Positions 10,301 through 42,100 of a DNA stretch of 64,000 nucleotides are shown in pieces. The DNA comes from Haplodiscus bocki (Eukaryota): the NCBI GenBank assembly GCA_965655095.1, contig OZ296649.1, positions 33,294,001 through 33,358,000 of the forward strand, written 5' to 3'. Position 1 is the first letter of the stretch; every line of letters begins with the position of its first letter. The translations under genes and the position numbers were made by a program. Under the pieces are notes generated by a model that was given only the letters and a program-made list of their open reading frames with translations, was not told the origin of the DNA and did no database searches.

Positions 10301-10928
10301 CACTGCCGTTGCCGGCCGGGCCCGACTCTGAACATTCTTGGCCTCTTTGCATCTCGTGACGTGATCTCAATTGTTGACTTTGCTGCGATGAACAAAAGCT
10401 GGATACCAGTAAATAATTGTCTAAAGTACGCCCATGTTGTATTTATTCAAAATGAAAATCTTCGGGTGGCTTATTCAACAGTTGAAAATCAGGAAACTGG
10501 ACTCGATATCAGTTTAATCATAGTTCTTTCAATTATAGTACGCTTTCTATTATTCTGTTGAAAAACACGACTCACTAAAATAGCACGCTCAGACTTCTCT
10601 TATACTGAATATGCATATACCAAAACGCAAATTTAAACCAAATTTATAAATATATTAGACTATCAAACGTACTACAGACGTTTCATCAACTGCGGCCTGG
10701 TTTATTTATGCAACTATCCGGTTTCTTTATTTTTTTGCCTAGATGGAAACTGAATAATGTTTAATTTTGCACTTCTGTCCCCGACCAGCTTCATCCGGTT
10801 AAATTTTACTATTGAAAAACATCGCTATTTTATTACATATTATTTCTTTTGTAGTTGTCTACTCCATTAAATTTGTAAAAAGTCTGTCAACTCATTCAGA
10901 CTTGGCATTTTATTATTTGAAAAAAGCG

Positions 10929-13900
10929 ATGGCTGTGTCATCGTCAACAGTTTCTGTGGAATTTCAAATTCGTGATCATATTGGCAAACGAATCATGGAC
11001 TTAGCTTTGGAGGCCACCGATTGTTCAGACGACACAGAAATTGCTGCAGTCCTGCTAGACTTGGAAGCTCTGTTCACTTCCCATCGCTCAGGTCCCCATT
11101 TGGACTTTGACATACGAAAAATTTGGGAATATGAACTTGCGGAACCTTGTATCATGTGCCTGGCCTGTGATTACTCACGAGTGGACGGTGGTTGGTCCGT
11201 AGGCGCCCAGTTGGCAAAATTTTTGCAGCAATATTTCCAGAAATTTGTACCAAAGGTTGATATTGTGAACGTTATTCGGAAAGAGTTGGAATCAAAGTTG
11301 CTGAATAATTGTGTGATGCTGTGTAGATGGATACAGACGAGATATAAGATGTTGGCTATTAGTGTGTCCCCTCAGAAACAGCCACTAATATCCAGTTTCA
11401 AAGCAGTCGCGGATGTCATCGACTAAGTGAGTGTTTAACTTTGTTCCGGTGTTTTCCCTGAAAATTGCGGAATTTCATAAAACGCTCAAAATGTATGCAA
11501 ATGAATTTTGGAAAGACCTTATTCCAGCGCAGTATGTTCGAGTTAGAGGTGAATTTTTTGAAGCAAATACCTTTTGAGTTAGACATTATAAGTTAAGCCT
11601 TGGAAATATGAAATTTTGCCCTCCCATCATCCGTTCCCTCCGAAAAAAAAACAAAATTATGCAAAAGTAAGCTCAAAATCATCGCGAGAAAACCTATTGC
11701 AGTTATTATAATAACTGAAATAGGTTTTACCGTGATGATTTTCAGCTGACTTTTGCAAAGTTTTTGTTATTTGACCAATAGGTATTCGAATTTCCGCTTC
11801 AGCTCAAAGTTAGCGTTTTTGATTAGTTTGTACTAATTCTGGAAGTGGGAAAATTTTGCAAGTAGGGGAAATGGAAAAGTAGTTTTGAAAAGTTATATGG
11901 CGAAAAACGTGAGTTTTTTCCAGGTTGTTGCACGTAACCAAGAATTAACCTGAAGTGTCCTTCCGAAGTATGAATACCTTCTAAAGATGCTTCTAACTGA
12001 CGAGCCAGACACACTAACATCTGTGGTGGAAACTATCCTGAGGTTGGGCCAGGTTTGTGCAAAGGAAGAGTTTTCCAAAGTGCCAGAAGACAAATTCTAT
12101 GCGCTGCTCGATGAAATGGTGTACAAATTATCTGAATTTGACTCGTCTACTGTTGTCGCTTCTGCTGTAACTAGAACGTTGTTGGCATTCTCTCAAATTT
12201 ATCCCAGAACTGGTGACGCCTTTTTCACAAGATAAAAAGGTTAATGCCCGGGAATCTGTTATGCACGGGGAATCTATTTGGTTTCTGGAAATTCATAAAA
12301 ATGAACACCCTTGTCAGTTCTGTAACTTTTATGGTGTTAAAAGGAAAACTTGAATGGCTGCTTTCCATGAAAGAAATGATTTTTGTTTGAACAGTCAATA
12401 CAGGATTTTATTTTTCAGAGTCATCTATCTTTTGGATAGACGTTCAATTTTTTCGTTTGCTTTTCGTTCTCTCTTGAAAATTTGCGGAACAGTTCTTGAA
12501 TTACATGTATCAACAAAATCCAAATTCTAAAATACAACACGGGGGATTACATTTTCTGTTCAGCAATGCGTTTTTTTTTGCCTTCAGGTATCCGATTCAT
12601 TATCACCAGATGGGCTGGTAAAGGTTTCGGTCAGGAGCAGCAGAAACTTCTTGAACTTCCTGGATTCTCAAACTAGACATATGAAAGAAATGGAACGTTT
12701 TCACAGAGCTGCGCGCGTCATCCAACGAGTCTATCGCATTTTCCTAGCAAAAAGACAACTGGCAAAACTCAAAGCCAAACAGCAGAATCAAGAGAGTGTC
12801 GAAAAAGAACAGAACGAAAAGGAAGACGCCGAGAGAAGACGAAAGTTGGAAGAAAATGATTTGAGACTACAGATGACGATAGCGCGTCATCGAGGAGCTA
12901 GGGAGGCCCAAGAAAAACACCTGTTTATGATTGAACAAGTACCTACTAAACAAGTTGACAGGTTCTTGCAAAGAAATGAAAATTCAGCAGCTCTTCATGT
13001 TCAGGCTTTATGGCATGGACTCAAATTAAGAAAAACTTTCTTGCAACAGCGAGAATGATGAAACAAGCCAAGTGTGTGATTATAATCCAGAAACGTTCCA
13101 AAGATGTCTTGCCACAGCTGACCATAGGAGGCGGAAAATAGGAGGTGTGGGGATTTTCTGGAGTGCTGATGGATTGAGCGAAGAATGCAGGGCTGAATTG
13201 CGAGAAGTTAGTAGAAAATTTAGTTTCTAATTCCAATTTTCAGGGACTGCCCAAACTTCAAATTTGATTATTTTTGCAATTTGAAGAAAATCTTCCTGAA
13301 ATGCGGCACTGAAAATAGACTGCAAGATTTTGAAAATTCTTATTTGCTGAAGAAACTGGCAATTATAAAAGACAAATTATGGGTTTTCGGTTTGCTCAAA
13401 ATTTGTCGTGCATTTTGTGAGAGTTGATATTGGCTTCGATTTGATAATTTTCAATGAAAATTGATTTAGATTGTTTTTAGACAACCCATGAAATCAGAAA
13501 GCGCCTCTCTTTGCGACCAATGACAAAAAAACGAACAAGAAACACATTTCCAACGGAACAGGATTCTCTCAAGCATCATATTTAGCTATCTGGGATCCGA
13601 GTTAATGCCGACATGAGAAGAGATACTCTATTGGCTAAAATGGATATTGTCTACCATCTGTTACGAGACGCATCCTGATTGGACGACAGCATTACTGATT
13701 ACGTAAATAATAGATACCTCAGCCCCATCGCACCGGTTGCTCTTAGTGGGAAAACAAGCACATTTAGGTACACTTCAGCAGGAAAAGTTAACGTGGTATG
13801 GGAAATTGGGAGTAAAGAACGAATTAAATATTGATGACACTTTCTCTACTCGAGCTGTGATCGAAAGACAAATTGATCAAGCTGTAAAATACAGTTGTTT
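10929..13900 (+). pseudogene. IQCB1: IQ calmodulin-binding motif protein 1 (IQCB1/NPHP5) homologue; unprocessed, intron-containing pseudogene
   Basis: Four exons (~10929-11426, 11924-12239, 12588-13206, ~13470-13900) with GT-AG introns. Motifs DYSRVDGGW, FYALLDEMVYKL, RWAGKGFG, IQ motifs (AARVIQRVYR, AALHVQALWHG) and KQAHLGTL..WYGKLG match IQCB1 in order. In-frame stops (TAA 11424, TGA ~11951, TAA 12233) and frameshifts (~12650, ~13056, ~13095, exon 4). Confidence 0.88.
11650..11768. mobile_element. Fold-back / MITE-like palindrome in IQCB1 intron 1
   Basis: Left arm tgcaaaagtaagctcaaaatcatcgcgagaaaacctattgcagttat; reverse complement of the right arm is tgcaaaagtcagctgaaaatcatcacggtaaaacctatttcagttat. 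Confidence 0.7.
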
Positions 13901-26048: not shown

Positions 26049-27353
26049 TGTCGCATTGGAAGTAACGCTCTAAGGACTAATTAAAACAAACATAATAAGT
26101 GCTGACCTTTTTTGGAGGGCTGAATAAAAAGGAAGAGTAAAAGAAGCTGATGGAATAAAAAAAACCGTTGGGATTGCACAATTCATTTTTATTTAAAAAA
26201 ACCTAAGCTGTAGCTTCTTTCCATTGGCTCGTGCTGCTAATATGCTTCGTACAAGCCAGTTTTCTTTTGGTTGTACGAAACGGCATCATGCTGTTTTCTT
26301 TGGAGTGGATCGGCGAAACCAACTCGATCAGATTTTTCCTTCCCGCTCAAAGGACGGCACTCCTCACTCCTCTACTGACTTGCTCTCCTCTTCTTTCCTC
26401 CTCCATTTTCCTGGACAAATTATTCTTAATCCAACTACCTTTCTCCCTTTTACTCTGTTGGAGAAAATTTTTCTTAGTCCAATTCCTCTTCCCCCTTCTT
26501 TTCGGACAAAATTATTCTAAGTCAAAATTGCCTCTTCTCTTTGCTCTTTTTTGACTATTAATTCTGAGCCCAACTACAAATTTACAAAAGTCACATTTTT
26601 TTCTGACCTTAGATAAATTCCCATTTTTTGCATACCAATTCCGTACTCTTTCCACTGGAGTCTAAACAGAGTCCACTAACGCCAGCTTGGGTATTGGCGT
26701 GTGCGGATTCCGTGAACTAACTTCGGTGCTGAAGCAAGAATGAATCTCAAGTTGAACAATCCTCACGATGTTCCTCTAGAGTTATTTTTTTGGCATTACA
26801 TAATAGACCAAGTCTCAGCTCGTCTGTTGCCGTGGTAACTTAAAATTCAATTTAGATTCCTAGATACGGATTAAATACGCAGAAGCCGTCCCTTTTTGCA
26901 AACAATCCATTTCTCGTTTTGACTTAAAATTCCTCATTCGGTTCCACTGCAACTCGGATTTTTAAAAAGAGAGTTCCAGAACAACACGCAGATCAACCAG
27001 CTCCATCAACAGTATCCGTTAGTCAAAAAATTTTCTATTCCAGAATGATTATATCTCTCTGGTCGAGCCTAATACTTTGTTTTTGAATACTTTCCGTGAA
27101 ATCCGCTCGACAGTAGTCTCCATTGGGGAAGAGGGCGTTAGGGGACATTCACCAGGTTACCGCTAGAAGCGAGTTTTCACCTGAGTCTTAGATAAAACTT
27201 AAACGATCTCAAACCCCACCAATAAACCCGGAGATTCATTCACGGTTTAGAAAGTCGGGGAAAACTGAGATTTTTCAACCAGTGGTTGGAGAATTGCGAG
27301 TCAATGAGTGTAGAGTAAAGAGACACAGTTGTAGACACCATTTACATACGACA
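26049..27353 (+). mobile_element. Solo-LTR-like element (~1.3 kb)
   Basis: Starts TGTCGCA and ends TACGACA (near-inverted termini). 26049-26620 is homologous to the reverse complement of ~47600-48241. No TSD, PBS or PPT seen. Confidence 0.5.
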
Positions 27354-30142: not shown

Positions 30143-30585
30143 TCCCGGCTGACAAGTCTGAACAAAAGTTTATTGAGACAGTATTTTGAAAGCTGGTCGG
30201 CCGTTGAGAAAGCGGAAGAATTAGGGTTGTTGGCGGAGTCGGGCGGCTTTCTCGAAATAGAGTAAGTCGCTCGGCTTTGTCGGTCGTCGAGGGCCTTATA
30301 GCCATCGGCGGCCTTTTATATGTCCTGTGCAGTAGTTTACTGTGCGGCTTTCTTCTTTGGAATTGCACTACAAAAAAAATTTTTTGGTTTTTTGCAATCT
30401 TTTCTTAAAAACTTGTATAAAATCAGGAGTTGAGTTGGCGAGAAGAGGTTAAGCTGAGTCATCCACGGTAATTATTAAGAGCAGTAATTCTGAGTAGAAA
30501 ATAAAAGTGCATGTAATAGAAAAGTTATAAAAACGCGGCAATAGGATAACGGCGATCAAAGTTTGTAGCCCTGTCGGGTGATTGT

Positions 30586-32420
30586 TCACAATACTGACTG
30601 AGAATTGGGATAATTTTGTGGAGAACGATTATTTTTAAGCCCTTTGGAGCGCAATTTAGCGTTATTTTTAGCCATGCGAGTGGCACTGTTACGAATAAAT
30701 TGTTGAATTGGACTGAGGTGTTCCCGGGGCGACAATTGAGTAGTTTGTGCATGCTGAGAAGAAGATGGATGGGGGGTTGATGTGTCCGCAGTAATTGCAG
30801 GTGATAGCACAGGGGTGCGAGAAGGAGCAAGTGGAAAAGTAATTCCTGAATCGTTGCTATGCATACTAGATCGTTTCGGCTTGTTTGTGGATGAAAGGTA
30901 TCGTAAGGGTTCTATCGGGAATGGCAGGGAATCATGCTCTTCTGTTGAGCTTGGGTTGTTCAAATCCCGGGTGCGTTGTTCCCGGAAACGCTCGTAGAAG
31001 TTGTCATTCTGAAGATCAGGAGGTGCATATTCTTCTATCATTGCGGGTATAGATCCTTCTTTAGGTTAGTATTCGACAAAGTGATTTCTATGAACGGTTT
31101 TGATAACTGTAGGGTCTTTATCATCTTGAATTTGATAGGTGGTATTCGTGATACGCGTGGTAACGGTAAAGGGCCCAAGTCTTCGCTGTTGAAGATTCTG
31201 GCTGCGTGTAGGGTCCTGTTTGTGATTTTCGTAGAGTACTTTCTGTCCTATCTCGAGGTGGTATCCCATTTTGAAGCGATTGCGATAAGCGTGTGGTCGT
31301 GCGGTTTGTTCTCGGCATCCTTCGAAGGTTGAGAAGGAAATTTGTTTGAAGGTCCGTTCTCGATCTAAGAGAGCTTGGGAAAATTGTGGTTGAAGTAGAG
31401 TGTCCAACAATTCGTTCTTCGAGCTGTTCTCGTTATGTGAATGAGAAGTGAGATCTTTACAAACATTTGAACAGCAAAGCTTGTGTTTATTCCGATAAAG
31501 TCCCAGTTTGAGGGACATAGAGATTTGTGGTTTGGTCCCAAAGACAATTTCATATGGATTTTTTCCAGTTGTGTAGTTGACACTTGTGTTGTGGGCAAAT
31601 GCAAACTTCGGTGCTAGTGAAGACCAGTTATTTCCGGCATCATTAAGAAAGTTTCTCCAGTAACGAGCAATATGTTGGTTCTGGGTTTCACTTTCACCAT
31701 TTGTCCAGGGTGAATAAGCTGTACGAGGTCGTAGAGTAATTACAAGTTCTTTGGTCTAGTTGATGAACTCTGTACTGATAAAAGCAGTACCTCGATCATG
31801 GATGATCGACTGCGGGATTCCAAAAGAAAGGATCCATTTTTCAACAGCTGTAATAGTTGCTAAGGTTGTTGTAATGCACACTGGATATACCATCAAGAAT
31901 CGAGAGAATGCATCAACGATTAAACGTCAGTGCACGTTACTAGCACTAGTCCCTTGTGATCGATGTGTACAGTGCGAAAAGGAACTGTTTCGTGGTGCCA
32001 TTCTTCCAGTGGAACTTCGTTCCGATGCTTTGACTTAGGTTTGTTGTTCTGGCAGGTCAAAGCACATATCCAAGCAGACATTCCGGGCCAATAGTAAAAT
32101 CTCTTGGCATTGGCATAGGTTTTGGTTGCTTCCATGAGTCCACCCAATTCGTTGTAGTGTCCCGGACGGAAGCATGCAAGTAATAGAGATAAAGGGAGGC
32201 AAATACTGAGATTCTCCTCATCTGGCTTGTCTAACGGTTCATTATAGCAAAGGAGCTATCCTTCTTCTTCAATAAGAAGTCTGTTGATTTCTTGGCAATA
32301 TCGGAGAAGACCTTTAGACTGTTGTATCTCTGGTGATGTAGAATCGAAAGGCCTGTTTTTACGAATCCAAGAACGTACAGTACCAAGTACTGGGTCTTTC
32401 ATTTATTCTACGAGAATGGT
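30586..32420 (-). pseudogene. Gypsy integrase (Zn-binding region, DDE core, GPF motif) and low-complexity C-terminal tail
   Basis: HYNELGG..KTYANAKRFYYWPGM..CALTCQ; VHIDHKG (D), IIHDRGTAF (D), NGESETQN (E); RRLGPFTV...NTTYQI; frameshifted. Confidence 0.9.
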
Positions 32421-33079: not shown

Positions 33080-33490
33080 TTTCTGCTGAGAATATCTGGA
33101 AAGGCTAAGTTCGAGCCTGCCGTCCGAATTATCTTCAAGTTCTGGAATTTCATAATGGTGACTTGATATCGGAAATAGCGACGCGATAGTTGTCCCTTGC
33201 GTCACCATAATTAAAGAATTGGTTTTTCTTCACAATAGAGATAGATGGGAAATGGTGATCCAATAATGTAGTGTTCGTGAGTCTGGAGAGCTGATACAAT
33301 TCCACATGGTTCTCGATGAAGAGTGGACGTTTTTTGTTCTGCTTTGTCAAAAACACGAGAATTGAACGAGATAATTTACTTTCCCTCAAGAAATTGTTGG
33401 ATAGGAATACAACCTTTACCAACATTTGAAGAGTCCGCGTGAATATGAAACGGGTAATAGGTAGAAGGAAGTGCTAGAACTGTATCTTTG
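33080..33490 (-). pseudogene. Gypsy RNase H
   Basis: FHIHADSSNVG (DxS motif) through GSNLAFPDILSR. Confidence 0.8.
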
Positions 33491-33537
33491 TGAATTCTCT
33501 CCTTAATGGAGTTACACACTGTTTCGTGTTCTTCAGT

Positions 33538-34472
33538 TCAGTGGAATTGTCTAGAATCCTTAATTAAGTCATAAAAAGGCTGACTGTCAACGTGTAAGTT
33601 CTCAATATAGCAGCTGTAGAAACCAAGACAACTCAAGACTTCCATAACGTCTCGCTTACTCTGTGGTGACTTGAGGTTCCTCAGGGCGTCCACACGCTTT
33701 GCTATTGGTTGGATCCCATTTGGTGAGAAAACGTGTCCCAAAACTTTACTTTCTTTAGAAAGAAAAACGTCTTGTCAGGGGCAGCTTTTAACCCAGCCTT
33801 CCGCAGAAGGGTGTGATATTCATTGATGATGGGAAACATCTTGCCTCTGGTTTGCAATTGCATGATGGTGTCATCAATGTAGGTAATTGCCTGTTTTTTC
33901 CTGATCAGTGGGTCGAAATGAAACGTCGCTAAGCGATTGAAGAAATTTGGTAGGCCACACAGACCGTAGAATCCTCGGGTGAAAGCATATTGTCGTCCAC
34001 CGATGATGAAGCTTGTCAATTTTTGTGTTTCGTAGCTAAGGGTACCTGATGGTATGCACAGGACAAGTCACTGACTGAGAAGAATTTTTCGTTCATTCTT
34101 GTCATAATCATCTGAACTGGTTCTAACGGCCAGGAGTAAATTTGGAGGTCGGTTACTGAGTTTCAGGTAGCGAGCATCAATCACTAATTTGACGTAGTCA
34201 TTCTTTGGCATCAGGATAATTGGGTTAACAGGGAGGGATCCCATTTCGTCATCATCGCCCATCTCTCGAATGATATCGGCGTCCTTCAGTTGTGTTAACA
34301 GTTTCTCAAGTTTATCTTTTAAATGTAGCTGCACTTTACTCGCTCGTTGACGTTTCAACTCCATATTTGGTTTCAATGTAACGTGAAATTTCTGTCGGAT
34401 TTTCCCAACATCGAACTTGTGGAGGGAATACTCATCCTTCGAGTCGATCAGCATATCAATGAGAAGAATCAT
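33538..34472 (-). pseudogene. Gypsy reverse transcriptase
   Basis: NPIILMPK..KLVIDARYL, DLSCAYHQV, TRGFYGLCGLP, ITYIDD, VKF(L)GH, GFYSCYI; frameshifted. Confidence 0.92.
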
Positions 34473-34759
34473 TTCGTGATCAGTTATGTCTGAGTAACTT
34501 CAAATTGTTTAACGTAATCAATTAACTCTTTAGGCTGATACTGGACATAGTGCTCAATAAGAGCTTCGTTTTGTTTCTTCGGGCGTAAAATGGGAAATTG
34601 TTCGTCGCAGTCTGGTTGACAGGAGTTAGCGTCACTGGTGAAATCGGTTTCCAGTTCTCTTTCGTTTAGATGAATTTGCTCGCTATATCGATCTATCTCA
34701 TCTTCGGCATAGAATTGCGGATCTCCCTCAGTGGGCATAGCGTGAATTGCGTGTTCGTC

Positions 34760-35150
34760 TAATGAGCAGACCACAATTTGTATATCTGATTAAGCAAAAA
34801 TATTCTCAGGAGTTTTACTACATCTTGCCAGTTCATCTGATCATGTCCACATCCAATTTTTGGTATGGCAATCGTTGAATTTCCGTGCAATGTAGCGTGT
34901 GCTTGCATAATTTGCAATGTTGTGGCGAGAGTCTGTAGGTCAAGTTTATCCGAGTATTTGTCCTTCGTCACAAGGTTATAGATATACCGTCTTGATGAAG
35001 AGTCCCAGAAGGGGAATACTTGGTTTTTACAGGGTTGGCTCGTGTAGAGGTTCTCCTTAGTCGCGGAACTCTTTTTGATAAGAACTGTGCAAACCCCTTA
35101 CTCATCTGAACATCTGGGGAGATACAAAGTCCAATTGAATTGCATTGTTC
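34760..35150 (-). pseudogene. TARG1/OARD1 (Poa1p-like) macrodomain within Gypsy pol
   Basis: SIGLCISPDVQMSKGFA, IYNLVTKDKY, LHGNSTIAIPKIGCGHDQMNWQDV parallel OARD1 'SLAHCISEDCRMGAGIA...IYYLITK...LSMPRIGCGLDRLQW'. One frameshift near 35000. Confidence 0.88.
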
Positions 35151-35605
35151 GAGAATTGAATTTTCGTTACCGTAAACTATTTGCAAGAATTCGTCGGGTA
35201 ACTGGGAAGGAATTGGCGAATGGAGTAAAAAACAGTCGTTGTACTGTTCATTTGTTGGAAGAATTGCATTTGTCAGCTCATAAGGCTCTCGTATTTGGTA
35301 TTTTGGTTCATCGTTGTCGGAAACATCTATTGATGAAAAGCCAATTCGGCCTTTAGGCAAAGTAATTTGGTGATTCTTTCATTTTTCATTAGTATAGGTA
35401 CTTTTGATTCTGATTGAGTACATAACACATTGACAAATGATAGTCCCGTAGCAACAGCGTTGCAATTTGGGTGGAAAGTTGATCCAGGAGGAAAATGAGC
35501 GTGAGGATCTTCGGGAGAATACTTCCAGCATCTTGCGCGCTTGGCTTCATTATGCATCGCATGTGGGGTTCGTATTGTTAGGATTTGCGAAATGAAGGGA
35601 TACGA

Positions 35606-35970
35606 TTAAGTCTGATGAAGGCTTCCATAACACACAGTATTTGGTGGTTCTTTAATTTTAATTCCCGGTAAATCAAAGTGAATGCCAGATTCCTGCTTTT
35701 GACAGAAGTCCATACCTGGGAGATTCTGAGTTTTCATTTCGGTAATCCAAACGGTTAAAGGGAAAGTAAATTGTGCATCTGGGTCGTAACTGAATGTTAA
35801 TGTTGCAAAGCCAATCATAGGTACAACTTGACCAGAATAAGTCCTTTTTTGTGTAATGCTTCTTTTCACCGTGATTGGGTGTTGGGTTTGGCAGACTTCT
35901 CAAAAGGTTCGATTCTTAATGATTGAGCTAGAAGCTACAGCATCTAACATGAATTCAATTTCTAAGCCAC
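35606..35970 (-). pseudogene. Gypsy aspartic protease relic
   Basis: IEFMLDAVASSSII (decayed D-T/S-G-A) at ~35945 and NLPGMDFC (from ILGxDF) downstream. Confidence 0.7.
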
Positions 35971-36125
35971 TATCTTTTTGAGTGTCTCCGGTGGCGAAGT
36001 AGAAAAGGTTGAAGCTGAGTCTTGAATTCTTGGACTGGTCAATACTTGAACTCGGAGACCTCAGTAGTTTAAAGGGCATAGTCCCGACAATCCGTTGACT
36101 TCATCGTCTGCTGTGGTGAATCGAA

Positions 36126-37460
36126 CTACGTTTGACTGGTTACCGTCTTTGGAGGTTGGGAACTTCTTGTCATAAGGTATATTGTTGCTCGGGTCTCGAC
36201 TCCCAAACCGGTGAAACACTGAAGGGTTAGGCGAAACTGATTGGGTTGTCTACGGAAATTTGTGAAGGAGGAATCTTGTCGTGACGCTGGAGGCGATAGG
36301 GAATAGTTATAGTTACTTCCCCAACTCCTAGATTGATCTTGGTCCGACTGGTTTGGTGAATTTGCTGTGTATTTTTTATACCGGCTGCTGTTGTTATATT
36401 CTGGTAGTCTCTCGTTAGGTCTGTTTTGTCTGAAGTTGTTAGAGTTCTGACGTTTTGGCTGGAAATTTCCTCTAGTAAAGGAGTGGAGGGTTGACATCAT
36501 AATCCTATTATCATCGTTCCGTCTAGTCCAACTCCCAGATCCGTGGGAGGGTCCATGTCTTTTGTTGTTATCATAGGTGAACGTAACTTTTTTCTCGGCT
36601 GTGGCTTCATTTTGCAACTTCTTGACTTCTTCATCCCGTAACTTCTTTCTGCAAACATTAGGAGTGTGACCATTGGTTCTACAATATCCACAAAACCTTG
36701 TAGCATTTTGTCTTCCCTTCTGGTTAGGGTCAATAGGTTTTTGTTTTCCTTCTAAAGCGTTTATTCTGTGTTCCTTCAGCTCAGTTTGTAGGTTTTTTAT
36801 TTCTTGTCCCAAAGAGGCCATTTGAGCCTTGTTCTGTTCTTCGTCATTTAGAAAGCTAGTAGAGACTTGATAAGATACGTCTTTGTTAATTAGGTGGGTT
36901 GAAAGTTCGTTCCAAGTCGCATTTGGATGTTCCATCAAATATTCTTGAGCATTTCGTTGTAGATATCCGGATCTGAGTCCTTTTAGTGTATAATCAAAAT
37001 ATCTTTGTCTTCTTTTGCGAGCTTGTGCGGTGCGTTCAGCGGCCTGTTCAGTTGCTAAAACTCCAGCCATATCGTCGGGCCAGACTTTGTCCACTGTTTT
37101 TTTTCGGTGAAGGATATTTTGAATCTCTTCTCCACCTGCTCGTATACAATGTTCAACTTCCATTCTGTGTCTGAATTTGTTTCTTCCATCTGAAAATCTG
37201 GTTATGAACAGAGTTCGGACATCATTCCAGGTTGTTGCATCTTGGATAGTGCTCCCATACCATTTAGCTGCTGGTCCTCTTAGCAATGACGAAAAAAAGA
37301 GCTTTCTTTCTGAATAGGTTGATAACATGTTCGTCGTCAGCCTCGTCTGGTTCGGTTCCGAGAGTAAAATTAATCTTGCACTCTATTAAGCGAATGAACG
37401 CTTCTGCATCTTGGTCTGGGTCTGTGCCAGAAAATTTTTCCAGTGACAAGTCTGGATGAG
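36126..37460 (-). pseudogene. Gypsy gag
   Basis: LEKFSGTDPDQDAEAFI; LRGPAAKWY..TWNDVRTLFITRF (retrotransposon gag); coiled coil; CCHC knuckle CGYCRTNGHTPNVC; frameshift near 37295. Confidence 0.88.
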
Positions 37461-37679
37461 CTAGATGAGCTTTGGCCAATTCGGAGGGTATATCTTTTCG
37501 AAAGAAAAAATCTAGAAGTTCTCCAAAAATATGAAGGTGGTGGGAGTTCAAGTGGGGCTCAAGAAATTTCACGAAATCGTTTAGCGCCTCTGATAGAGAT
37601 TCAAGTAAAGGATGATGTCTAATATTGTTTATCTGTTTCGAAATATTTGGGTCTTCTTCAGAATGGACATTCTCTCCTA

Positions 37680-39144
37680 TCCAGAAATTATAGTTGAAAG
37701 TCCATTCCAAGCTTGTAATGATGAATGCTAGGGTTCCGTCTTCACAAATGATGGTCCACGAACAATTCAGTGGAACATGTTGGCATTCTTCTTCGATATC
37801 ATCCCAATTTGGTGGAAGGTTCTCAAAATTTTGTGGCATCTAATTTTTTAAAAATTGAAACGCAGATGTTCCATTAGCTCTTCCAAAATTTCGAGTTGAT
37901 GGGGATTCAAATGAGGTTCAAGGAAAGTTTCCCATGAATTGAGTGCACCAGTTCAGGATCTAAGCAGAGGATGATGATCGTTTAGGTCTATTTGTTTCGA
38001 GGCGTTCGGTGCTCCCAGCGGATAGGCTGTCACTGGTACACAGAAGTCATAATTGAAGGTCCATTTAAGGCAGGTTATGATGACTGTTAGATTCGTGTCT
38101 TCAGAGGTTATTGTCCAGAGGCAATTTATTGGGATATGTTTGCACTCTTCTTCGGGTAGCTCGTTATCGAGTTTTCAAATTTTTGGGGCATCAGGCGTTA
38201 ACACGAATTTATTATGAAAGGACAATTGAAGTTGTCTATGTATAGTGGTTCACCACTGTGTCAGTTAGGAGTGAATTGATAACTGTCAAGTCCAATTCGG
38301 GAAATCCGAGTTCTGGAAATTCGTGATAATGTCGGATAGCGGCAATCGCTGTGGCAAAATGTTCGTGGAATCTCGTCAATGTAATGAATTTACTGAATAA
38401 AGGTTCTCCTTCAGAATATATTTGTTATCGGAGTCGGAAGTGTCTTTTGAGAGTGAAATCAATCCTCGTTAATATCACTTTCAATTGTTCAGTTGGGGTT
38501 TGCTAACGTCCACGGACAGAATAGAAAATTAGGTTTGAATTCGTTGTATTCGAAGAAATACCAGTGCTGGTTAGGGTCGTTTCCCAAGCTCCAGAGGCAT
38601 CAGTCAGTTATTCGTCAGACTGCTTGTTCAGAATTTGCCCAAGTTTAATTACTGCAAGGATATAATTGGGTCCCAAGAGTAGAGATAATAATAGAATCAG
38701 CAGGAGATATAGGAAAAGCGCAAGGTCTCCTCTCATTTCTAAACAGTAGAATTTCTGTCATTCAGGGTTCCGTCAATCTCGAACAGTGCAACCAAAAAGG
38801 GAGGAACTAGCAATAAAATCAATACTATTAAAAGCAGCGCATAAAAAAAATCAATAAATCTTGATTCATCTCCTCAAGGATCGAATATTTCTATCAACCA
38901 CTGTCGTTGAGCCCAGTTGAAGAATTCAAACCCGATGAAATAATTCTTGGAGATAGATTTTCTGTCGGTTGGAGTAGAGGACACTCTGGCTAAAATCTGA
39001 GACCCAGTTAACTATTATACCAAAAGAAGCGCCGGTAATTAAAGAAATCAAAGCACCCAATATAAGAATTAGGCTGAAAATTAAAAATGACCAAGTTGGG
39101 AAAGTGGAGAAAAGATTACCTGATACTTCACAAATATAACTCAT
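37680..39144 (-). CDS. Cassette of ~6 small ORFs between PBS and gag, partly decayed
   Basis: ATGs at 39144, 38869, 38736, 38600, 38191 and 37839. The first three encode hydrophobic TM-like peptides; the last two are paralogues. Confidence 0.6.
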
Positions 39145-39156
39145 TGAAGGGCCTCA

Positions 39157-39171: not shown

Positions 39172-42100
39172 TGTCGCAGGTGGTATGGGTATTGCAAATC
39201 TAATATTTACTTAGTTGTGCTGGCGGTTGACTCAGTCAGCACTGCTGCGTTGTAGCGACGGCTAAAGTTTGTAAGTCTCAATAGTGTGCCTAGCTTAACC
39301 GTGCGAACAAAGGGATTGCGTGAATTCAAGCAAGGACTTGTGAGCTATAGTGGAGAATAATACAAAGGGACGTTAAATTATCAGTGAATGTATTCCATTA
39401 TGTTGAATTGTGAAAAAAAGACTGCACGTACATAAGGGGGAATTACTCAGCTCTGTCTGAGGCTGTAAGCTCGGAATAGCACAGGGAAAGATGCCACATG
39501 GTCTTAAATTTTACGCAATACAGTTACACTATTTAAATTCAAAATTCTTTCCTTTATTTTCAATCAACATCAGCTTAGCAATTTTAGATAAGCGTTTAAA
39601 AACTCAATCTTATCGACTTCTATTTAAATTTGACCCGTGAATTTAGTGGAAATACAGAATTTTATTCAACCAGAAGTCAGAAGATTAAAGGAAGGGTTGA
39701 AAGGGGGATGCCACAAATTGTTAGAATTTAAAAAAAAATTAAAAATTGAATACCGTTAAATTAGTTTTATTTTAGGATTGAAAGTATAAGCGACATCACA
39801 TTAATTCAGACCATTTTAAATTAGTCTGGATTGAAATTATAAAATCAAATATTAAAGTTGAATTAAAAAAATTGAATTAAATTAGGAATTTACAAATCAT
39901 GGATGGAAATTGGACTCTTTCAATTCAGTCCAATTAAGTTGAAAAGTGAACTATCAAAATTAGGAAATTGGACTCTTTCAATTTATTCCAAAAATTTTTG
40001 GTTATCAAATTTACAAAATTGGACTATGCAAATTTAGTCCTAATAAACCATGAATTATATAATGTTAAAATTAACGATGATCCACATCCCCGATTGCTGC
40101 TGCCGATTCCGGAGCTGCAGCTGGAATATCTGTGAATATCTGTAATTAGGGTGAAACATACACCATTGTACTTTTTGACTAGTGCGGGTGATGTACACTT
40201 TCCATCTTGCTTTTTTAGCCAGTCATTTTACAGTTTGTTTTACGTTTAGCTAAACCACGCTATGCTCTAGGTTTCTAGGCCAACGGGTTAAAATCCTAGT
40301 CCCTGTTTTAGTCCCAAGCTGGATAGGCCAGTCTGTTGGGAAAGGGAGTTCAATTTGCATGCATTTTACATTACATGCATTTTACACTACTCTTAACTTG
40401 AAAAATCACCACCGTGTGGTATAAAACCACTCGTTGGGTCTAATCCTAAAGCTGGTTTTTAGTCACCTGCCGATTTCAGTCCGGACTCACAGGACACCAG
40501 CAATTAATTTTTCTTCTCTTTTATCTGCGACCAGGATATAAGTCATTAGGACTGTGAACTGGTCGTGATTATTATATTTGTTTTACTTTTACCAATCAGT
40601 TCTAAGTCTTAGTAAGAAAAGGGAATAAATCACAAAAAAAGGAATTTTAGAAAAGTGGAAAAAGTAACAAAAATGGGCCTCGGTGCGGTGATTACACTCT
40701 ACTACCGGGCAACTAATCCTAGGTCAACTGCTAGCGGGATATCCTCTGCTAGGAACCGTAGTGATAACTAACGGAGGCTGGCGTTGATCATGTACGTGCT
40801 GCTGGTAGGATGAATGCTGGTTGCTGTTGCTTGTTGCTGCTGTTGATAGCTACTGCTGTTTGCTGCTGCTGTTTGCTGCTGCCGGTTTCTGCTGCCGGTT
40901 GCTGCTGTCAATTTCTGCTGATGGTTGCTGCTGCCGGTTGCTGCTGTTGATTTCTGCTGATGGTTGCTGCTGTTATTGCTGCTGCTGGTTGCTGCTGTTG
41001 ATTGCTGCTGCTGGTTGCTGCTGTTGATTGCTGCTGCTGGTTGCTGCTGTCGATTTCTGCTGATGGTTGCTGCTGCTGGTTGCTGGCCGGGAAGTCTCGG
41101 AATATTTCCGGGATGTTGATGATTTGCGGCTAAGACAATTCTGCAGGCGAAAAAGTCTTTGAATATTTTCAGGTGGGGCAGATTTGAGCAGGAAGAATTT
41201 AGCTTGCTGATGGAAAAAAAAGAGAATAGGTTTTTCAAACATTTAGGTGAGAGTTGTGGGTAAGAGAGCTTCGATTCGGCGAAGTAGGCTAGTTGGGCGT
41301 AGCAAGCGAATGAATAAAATGAGGGAGTACGGGGTATTTATACCCTGTTATGACGTGACCTAGTAATTGACCAAGAAGAGCGCTACGAAAAGCGAAGTTA
41401 GTGAAGATCATTAAGTCAGTAGGAACAGTTTGAATTTTGAAAAAGGGACGGGTTCAGCATATTTGATCCGTATCTCGGAAATCAGAATGAATTCTAATTG
41501 CCACGGACGCAGACGAGGTGAGATTTGATCTATGAGTAACGTCATTTCTCTTTCCTAGCAACCTCGTGGGGGTCGTGCAATTTAAGATTCACTCGTGCTT
41601 CAGAACCGGAGCTCGTCAGCGGAATTCGCACACGCTAATACCGAAGCTAGCGTTAGTGGACACCGTTTATACTTCGATGGCAGGAGTATAGAGTTTGTAG
41701 GCAAGAAGAGGAATTTTTTGGAAGTCAGAAAGAAAATGGGACTTGGAATATTTTTGTCCGACGAGAAGAGAGGAGAGAATTTTGTATTGATTTTATCCCA
41801 GTAAAAGGGAAGAGGAGAGTAAAGCAGGAAGAGGGTAAGATAAGAGAGTAAGGTAAAGTATGAGAAGTAAGCCGTCCGGTAAGCGAGTAAGTAAGTAATG
41901 ATCAGGTCGCTTTCCCGTACCAGCCACAAAATGCAGCTATACTACATCACCGGTCACGTGACGGTATAAGCCAATCGCGTTGAACCACAATCCAACGCTT
42001 TTAGAATTTTTGCTTTTCTCCTTTCCTTTTCTCCTTTCCTTGTGCAATTCCATTCCTTCAGTCTTTTTTATATCGTATTACTCTTCCTTTCACCAGCTCA

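Follow-up and report, generated by a model that had tools for sequence, protein, structure and literature searches.

The window, i.e. the whole stretch of 64,000 nucleotides from Haplodiscus bocki that was analysed, contains a decayed Ty3/Gypsy copy. Its parts lie on the minus strand, in the order gag, protease, a domain of ~115 aa, macrodomain, acidic linker, reverse transcriptase (RT), RNase H and integrase (to ~30,560), and the Ty3/Gypsy arrangement of gag, then PR-RT-RNase H-integrase, is present. All coordinates of the element given below refer to this strand.

The N-terminal part of a gag-like ORF1 (37,264-37,839, a 191-aa ORF assigned to gag by position and by eye) is decayed, with its start duplicated just upstream. 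The tandem duplication of this start covers ~120 codons (37,480-38,200), and a self-match pairs 37,682-37,795 with 38,041-38,154 (72% over a 114-nt core). Gag with a Cys/His knuckle-like motif, read from the translation, lies at 36,126-37,382 (Retrotrans_gag E 5.6e-4, below the curated cut-off). The aspartic protease (35,698-35,968, motif at 35,947-35,927), decayed as well, was located by tblastn of the relatives P0015 and P0129, whose residues 38-127 match gag-asp_proteas. It is followed at 35,330-35,680 by the conserved ~115-aa domain (P0015 residues 135-250), 78% identical between subfamilies A and B, for which no Pfam or PDB match was found. Its Atlas neighbours are eukaryotic look-alikes without names (0.93-0.94), and AlphaFold with a shallow alignment reached a pLDDT of 30. 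A degenerate dUTPase-like fold was considered for this domain because of a resemblance, and was dropped as neither Pfam, PDB nor any other tool supported it.

Beyond the macrodomain, an acidic linker (34,500-34,768; 80-84% by tblastn of P0124 and P0129) leads to the RT with its pre-RT segment (33,720-34,496, YIDD at 33,881-33,870), which is broken and matches RVT_1 on one piece (E 4e-6). For the RT of the relative P0129, the nearest solved structure is Ty3 (E 1.8e-38), foamy virus giving 4e-23. The RNase H (33,140-33,540) is broken by stops and was located by tblastn of P0129, residues 850-981 of which match RT_RNaseH. The integrase, with zinc finger, core, C-terminal domain and a tail, is likewise broken (30,559-32,255; Integrase_H2C2, Integrase_p58_C and tblastn of P0124). 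Over the pol region as a whole, P0124 aligns in nine tblastn pieces of 61-84% identity with 17 stops in total, some of them falling in overhanging out-of-frame ends of the pieces. No LTR pair was detected in 20,000-50,000, nor by self-BLAST of the window; an old copy may have lost its ends, or these may have diverged.

Around the element, a broken frame with several hydrophobic stretches lies upstream of gag (38,200-39,150, minus strand), and a tandem repeat with a 13-base period at 40,792-41,124. An inverted pair of ~315 bases and 74% identity (26,588-26,902 and 41,436-41,744) flanks the element and is probably another dispersed repeat. Exon-like host-gene frames are found at 10,803-13,058 on the plus strand, one of them with an IQ-like motif and a coiled coil, as judged by eye.

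The macrodomain of the window copy

The original prediction rested on two motifs, LVTK and IGCGHD, and these are indeed found at the places claimed, on the minus strand and in one frame (34,974-34,963 and 34,857-34,840). The macrodomain spans ~35,190-34,770 over three frames. A profile built from relatives, run against the six-frame translation of the window, found three pieces of it (E 4e-48, 2e-23 and 7e-11) and none elsewhere. The N-terminal piece (35,030-35,186) was delimited by this profile (E 2e-23) and by aligning a natural copy to TARG1; it carries the equivalents of Ser35 (35,120-35,118) and of Gly43, the latter within MSKGFA (35,105-35,088), and alone it had no PDB match. The C-terminal half (34,804-35,025), recognised by phmmer and Pfam Macro, carries the equivalents of Lys84 (34,965-34,963) and Asp125 (34,842-34,840). 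The end of the last helix and the last strand are in the third frame (34,769-34,803; profile E 7e-11 and translation). The predicted region 34,760-35,150 thus stands, except that the domain starts slightly upstream of 35,150, with the motifs GNENSIL at 35,171 and CISPD at 35,126. Its placement between protease and RT also holds in the sense that the protease motif (35,947) is found on one side of it and YIDD (33,881) on the other, but it does not directly follow the protease, since the ~115-aa domain and a linker intervene.

The reading frame shifts near 35,025 and again near 34,800, and there is a stop near 34,790, so the window copy cannot encode an intact macrodomain; the locus is a dead element copy. 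The catalytic positions said to be retained are therefore kept as codons, and family-wide as described below, but not in any product of this locus.

The 74-aa piece at 35,025-34,804 matches human TARG1/C6orf130 (PDB 4J5R) at E 3.6e-10, all 5 of its PDB matches up to E 1 are TARG1 chains, and Pfam Macro matches it at E 2e-4 (21.7 bits, just below the cut-off of 22). With the whole domain of a natural copy, the TARG1 entries (4J5Q, 4J5R, 4J5S and 2L8R; ALC1-like class) were found at E 1e-21 and the next family at 0.0085; a profile search ranked them similarly (3.5e-22 against 0.0098), and TARG1 took Foldseek ranks 1-8 with a low-confidence AlphaFold model (shallow alignment, pLDDT 46). These comparisons support a domain of TARG1/OARD1 type, as originally proposed, rather than of DarG, MacroD or viral type. 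DarG (PDB 5M31 and 5M3I) belongs to the same macrodomain class and shares the catalytic Lys (PMC7050489), but its match is much weaker than that of TARG1 (E 0.0085-0.044), and it lacks the acidic partner residue that the family keeps. Identity as a DarG antitoxin was rejected: the DarG model NF048014 scored 37-44 bits over the macro part only, against a cut-off of 250, and the family domain sits in a retroelement Pol with neither a DarT toxin partner nor the C-terminal domain of DarG.

By alignment, the Lys of the LITK-type motif and the Asp of the GCGLD-type motif correspond to Lys84 and Asp125 of TARG1 (residue numbers derived from chain 2LGR, which ends at Leu152). The second catalytic residue is named Glu125 in PMC7050489 and Asp125 in PMC11488344; the PDB sequence of TARG1 has Asp at this position. 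The equivalents of Ser35, Gly43, Lys84, Pro118, Gly123, Asp125, Tyr150 and Leu152 are all present in subfamilies A and B, and those of Ser35, Lys84 and Asp125 across subfamilies A-D. Unlike TARG1, to which it is ~30% identical, the family domain is embedded in a retroelement Pol, carries SIL/TIF at the loop that is usually DLF, and has a 3-residue insertion ahead of the Lys strand. The residues lining the adenosine pocket (Leu21, Phe22, Ile44, Leu47, Tyr150 and Leu152) become Ile, Leu, Phe, Phe, Tyr and Leu in A and B, all hydrophobic, and the position before the adenine pocket, Asp in most relatives, is Ser/Thr. At the Ile44 position, 142 of 154 family copies have Phe against 2 of 106 outside domains, and since Ile44 is required for ADP-ribose binding by TARG1 (PMC5928194), the pocket may be altered.

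Conservation and selection across the family

Unbroken relatives (P0124, 1767 aa; P0129; P0405, 1827 aa) run from protease through macrodomain, RT and RNase H to integrase without a change of frame. With the 74-aa piece as query, 257 of 263 candidate proteins matched, with 77-89% identity among the 120 matches listed. Among 177 proteins, the Lys was kept in 145 of the 151 that cover the site and the Asp in 141 of 150, and the equivalents of Ser35, Lys84 and Asp125 were jointly kept in 104 of 122 copies; Gly43 (131/154), Gly123 (146/150) and Pro118 (137/150), residues of the pocket, were similarly preserved. The residue before the Asp is Leu, as in TARG1, in 141 of 150 copies and His in a single one, so the His of GCGHD is private to the window copy. 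As the copy sets behind these counts were found with the macrodomain itself as query, we also took 56 cluster members by membership: 20 of them span both flanks, and all 20 contain the macrodomain with the three residues. The domain is not, then, absent from other family members.

In four public sequencing runs, one of them a coral reef metagenome with 398 aligned contigs, all 30 bins of 33,200-36,200 were covered by aligned contigs, and the two deepest runs gave 7,834 and 7,578 contigs aligned to the window region. At 34,844, which belongs to the His codon, run X1 has a base other than that of the window in 18,246 of its 18,386 depth units. We conclude that the element in the window is a dead member of a Ty3/Gypsy family with many copies, in which the macrodomain is a family-wide, in-frame part of Pol.

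Relatives with the same flanks span a range of macrodomain identities (subfamily B 73-77%, C 63-68%, D 43-45%, P0189 49%, P0218 35%). Columns were classed from 106 outside macrodomains as conserved (43) or variable (55); 52 of 150 representatives judged by eye to belong to the same clade, and matches covering fewer than 105 profile positions, had been left out of this outside set. Between A and B, 41 of 43 conserved columns were identical against 33 of 55 variable ones (p 3.5e-5). For A and C the figures were 39/43 and 29/55 (p 5e-5), and for A and D 33/43 and 17/54 (p 1.3e-5); five subfamily pairs without A showed the same sparing (p 2.7e-3 to 1.9e-6). Private differences among copies, on the contrary, fell on conserved and variable columns alike (393/6316, 6.2%, and 528/8046, 6.6%; p 0.43). 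Because the subfamily differences spare the conserved columns and the private decay does not, the constraint acted during transposition, and these comparisons show, as judged from sequences, purifying selection on the macrodomain while the element was active and its subfamilies were diverging. Column conservation reflects the core of the fold as well as catalysis. In its rate, the domain diverges about as fast as the flanking linkers and much faster than RT: between A and B, identity is 75% for the macrodomain, 81% for the protease, 73% and 71% for the two linkers and 95% for RT. The spacer between RNase H and integrase is far less well kept in subfamily comparisons (55% against 75% for the macrodomain, 39% against 68%).

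A possible exception is P0218, a single sequence of a related Pol fragment, which keeps the macrodomain at its usual site although Ser35 and both pocket glycines are missing from it, and in which the selection signal is gone (p 0.84, 0.68 and 0.053). It possibly represents a subfamily with a dead or repurposed macrodomain, in which case activity may be dispensable. P0244 has a second macrodomain, which is degenerate.

Related domains in other polyproteins

A search with the family's own macrodomain gave 35 matches among 143 candidates, i.e. 16 family members, 17 ligase-III-like or unlabelled proteins and 2 other Gypsy polyproteins, and a search with the macrodomain of another polyprotein gave 10 matches among 107 long candidates, 9 of them RT-bearing. 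In these other Gypsy elements the domain, of the same type and in frame with the Gypsy enzymes, occupies various positions: before the protease in P0354; between RNase H and integrase in aphid proteins (VVC26736.1 of Cinara cedri, QTP88 proteins of Uroleucon formosanum) and two further proteins, and in tandem there in the sawfly Athalia rosae (XP_048515211.1); after the integrase in P0276, P0377, P0429 and P0430; and after integrase and chromodomain in P0285. Lys and Asp stand at both columns in all 14 of their macrodomains, one of which is otherwise degenerate. The RT/RNase H of these polyproteins is only 24-32% identical to that of the window family, and none has the protease-macro-RT order, which was seen only in the window family's clade; the 14 domains of this clade group on a single branch (SH-aLRT 99).

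A single origin of the retroelement-borne macrodomains was rejected by the AU test in one of three draws (p-AU 0.0095, 0.10 and 0.31; 15 test rows against 30 in the first draw and 13 against 25 in the others; some 'outside' rows may be retroelement pieces). These domains may stem from separate captures or from one module passed between elements, and the kinship of the P0377 and family macrodomains was neither supported nor rejected. The Atlas clusters nearest to the macrodomain are mostly viral (0.96); a phage or bacterial donor was nevertheless set aside, as the Atlas taxa do not show transfer and the deep branching of the tree lacks resolution. A scan of JGI metagenomes returned 80 loci of 28-48% identity, and at no locus was there similarity to RT or integrase.

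The same type of macrodomain is also found outside retroelements. DNA ligase III-like fusions make up 16 of the 35 matches to the family domain and at least 4 of the 80 JGI loci (P0242, P0413-P0428, L001-L003 and L007, often with the macrodomain ahead of BRCT), and 2 more JGI loci match a macro-BRCT protein; the ligase III-like fusions occur in many eukaryotic sequences. P0302 joins it to a NADAR-like domain scoring above the NADAR-DarT1 cut-off, P0355 to NADAR and a helicase-like domain. Other combinations observed are an Ulp1 protease-macro-TatD fusion (P0262) and a PHD finger-macro fusion (P0272). In the single ORF of P0285, integrase, chromodomain and macrodomain are followed by a weakly rhabdovirus-glycoprotein-like region (E 0.0019, below cut-off).

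Macrodomains in LTR retroelements already have precedents, and the original caution on novelty was well placed, since other Gypsy lineages carry such fusions too and a public record already labels one: the automatic name of VVC26736.1 lists 'Macro domain' with integrase and retropepsin. Macro-domain ORFs have been described in fish epsilon-like endogenous retroviruses (Basta et al. 2009, as cited in PMC4977317). There too an LTR retroelement captured a macrodomain, but as additional ORFs of retroviruses rather than an insert in a Gypsy Pol, and of a class that the relevant passage of PMC4977317 does not state. Another parallel is KnitGypsy-Dnmt3, where a retrotransposon captured Dnmt3: again, the Pol ORF of a Gypsy element contains a host enzyme domain that retains its key residues and is under purifying selection (PMC5890265). 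It differs in enzyme and chemistry, and in that its activity is tied to methylation data, the activity of the present macrodomain being predicted. For the TARG1 type in a Gypsy Pol we found no paper. The full-text literature searched, with few subscription journals and not extending to Repbase, Dfam or GyDB entries or to supplements, returned no such domain or function in Gypsy, and curators may have noted it. Term look-ups in PMC8672886 and PMC4120745 gave no mention of macrodomains, and those in bioRxiv 2021.11.30.470311 and 2026.07.25.740670 returned nothing relevant.

Possible functions of the domain

Taken together, the sequences show a capture that is real and was under selection, and that is plausibly catalytic. 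The family domain is probably an active ADP-ribose-binding hydrolase and, granted this activity, a role against host restriction would be somewhat the likelier use of it. The best reading overall, which we hold tentatively, is that of a TARG1-type eraser protecting the proteins or nucleic acids of the element from host ADP-ribosylation. An ancestor of the family would have taken a TARG1/OARD1-type macrodomain into its Pol, between protease and RT. In Ty3-type elements Pol enters the particle and is processed by the protease that they encode, so that a macrodomain ahead of RT would be delivered, free or tethered to RT, to the site of cDNA synthesis. ADP-ribose that host transferases attach to element proteins, or to the bases or phosphate ends of its RNA or cDNA, would be removed there by the TARG1 route, with a Lys adduct resolved by the Asp, and this removal would relieve a block to reverse transcription or integration. 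In TARG1, Lys84 forms the adduct with ADP-ribose and Asp125 resolves it, and the substrates are acidic-residue MAR, O-acyl-ADP-ribose and DarT-modified DNA (PMC11488344), in agreement with the specificities first ascribed to it.

Published evidence for ADP-ribosylation acting against retroelements is indirect. L1 is silenced via KAP1 MARylated by SIRT6 (PMC4695847), while the restricting factor PARP13/ZAP is catalytically inactive (PMC5322727). In a virus, the hydrolase activity of a macrodomain is needed for replication (PMC5322727). The well-known catalytic link between a PARP and retrotransposition helps rather than restricts, PARP2 being activated at LINE-1 integration sites and assisting integration (PMC11140550). 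For this reason, the proposal that the domain implies an anti-transposon defence in the host went too far.

The same PARP2 observation is one reason to take as a serious rival, although we consider it unlikely, an active hydrolase that helps with repair: during strand transfer and gap repair at integration, it would uncap DNA or RNA phosphate ends that ordinary repair PARPs or TRPT1-type enzymes had ADP-ribosylated, or it would clear O-acyl-ADP-ribose. TARG1 strips ADP-ribose from the terminal 5' and 3' phosphates of DNA and RNA (PMC8053099) and moves to DNA damage (PMC11488344), and the frequent fusion of this macrodomain type to DNA ligase III-like proteins points the same way. Its patchy presence at varied positions, however, would look more like conflict. 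To our knowledge most Gypsy elements manage without a macrodomain, and hosts generally own erasers, which also speaks against a repair task. A different idea is that the domain reads ADP-ribose and so docks the pre-integration complex on PARylated chromatin or at damage sites, in the way that chromodomains act for chromoviruses. It finds some backing in the recruitment of TARG1 by PAR (PMC5928194) and in the five polyproteins with a macrodomain after integrase or chromodomain, and fits these integrase-terminal forms better than the window family. There, the macrodomain lies ~850 residues before the integrase zinc finger, beyond RT. It would probably be cut away from the integrase, and the catalytic Lys and Asp, superfluous for a pure reader, are kept; we regard such a role as improbable here.

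About as improbable, or a shade more so, is a non-catalytic use in RNA binding or spacing in the particle, under which the fold would persist while the pocket drifts. RNA binding by TARG1 is independent of the ADP-ribose pocket (PMC5928194), and Phe at the Ile44 site, the degenerate P0218 and the second domain of P0244 would fit; yet even subfamilies no more than 43-45% identical share the equivalents of Ser35, Lys84, Asp125, Gly123 and Pro118. If the domain were a neutral passenger that a successful element acquired a single time and has carried since, this might explain why between-subfamily identity of the macrodomain is close to that of the linkers. This reading is largely refuted by the column-conservation tests and seems very improbable to us: the frame is kept in unbroken copies, conserved columns are strongly spared while the control is flat, and the RNase H-integrase spacer has diverged far more than the domain.

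Returning to the eraser reading, a broader version of it is possible though doubtful: TARG1-type erasers would be a recurrent accessory module of invertebrate Gypsy elements, in at least four polyprotein positions, and would exist because animal hosts ADP-ribosylate the cDNA or proteins of LTR retrotransposons, a eukaryotic counterpart of what DarT does to phage and PARPs do to RNA viruses. Macrodomains of RNA viruses are known counters to ADP-ribosylation, and the reviews consulted give no retrotransposon-encoded eraser. The value of the finding lies in the family, the window locus itself being a dead copy. The question becomes testable, as the domain is small and soluble, assays exist, and the aphid and sawfly elements come from named hosts. 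If the repair reading were true, ADP-ribose marks would matter for cDNA synthesis or integration. More generally, a TARG1-type domain selected in one Gypsy clade and present elsewhere in distant lineages points to a link between ADP-ribosylation and LTR retrotransposition that has gone unrecognised.
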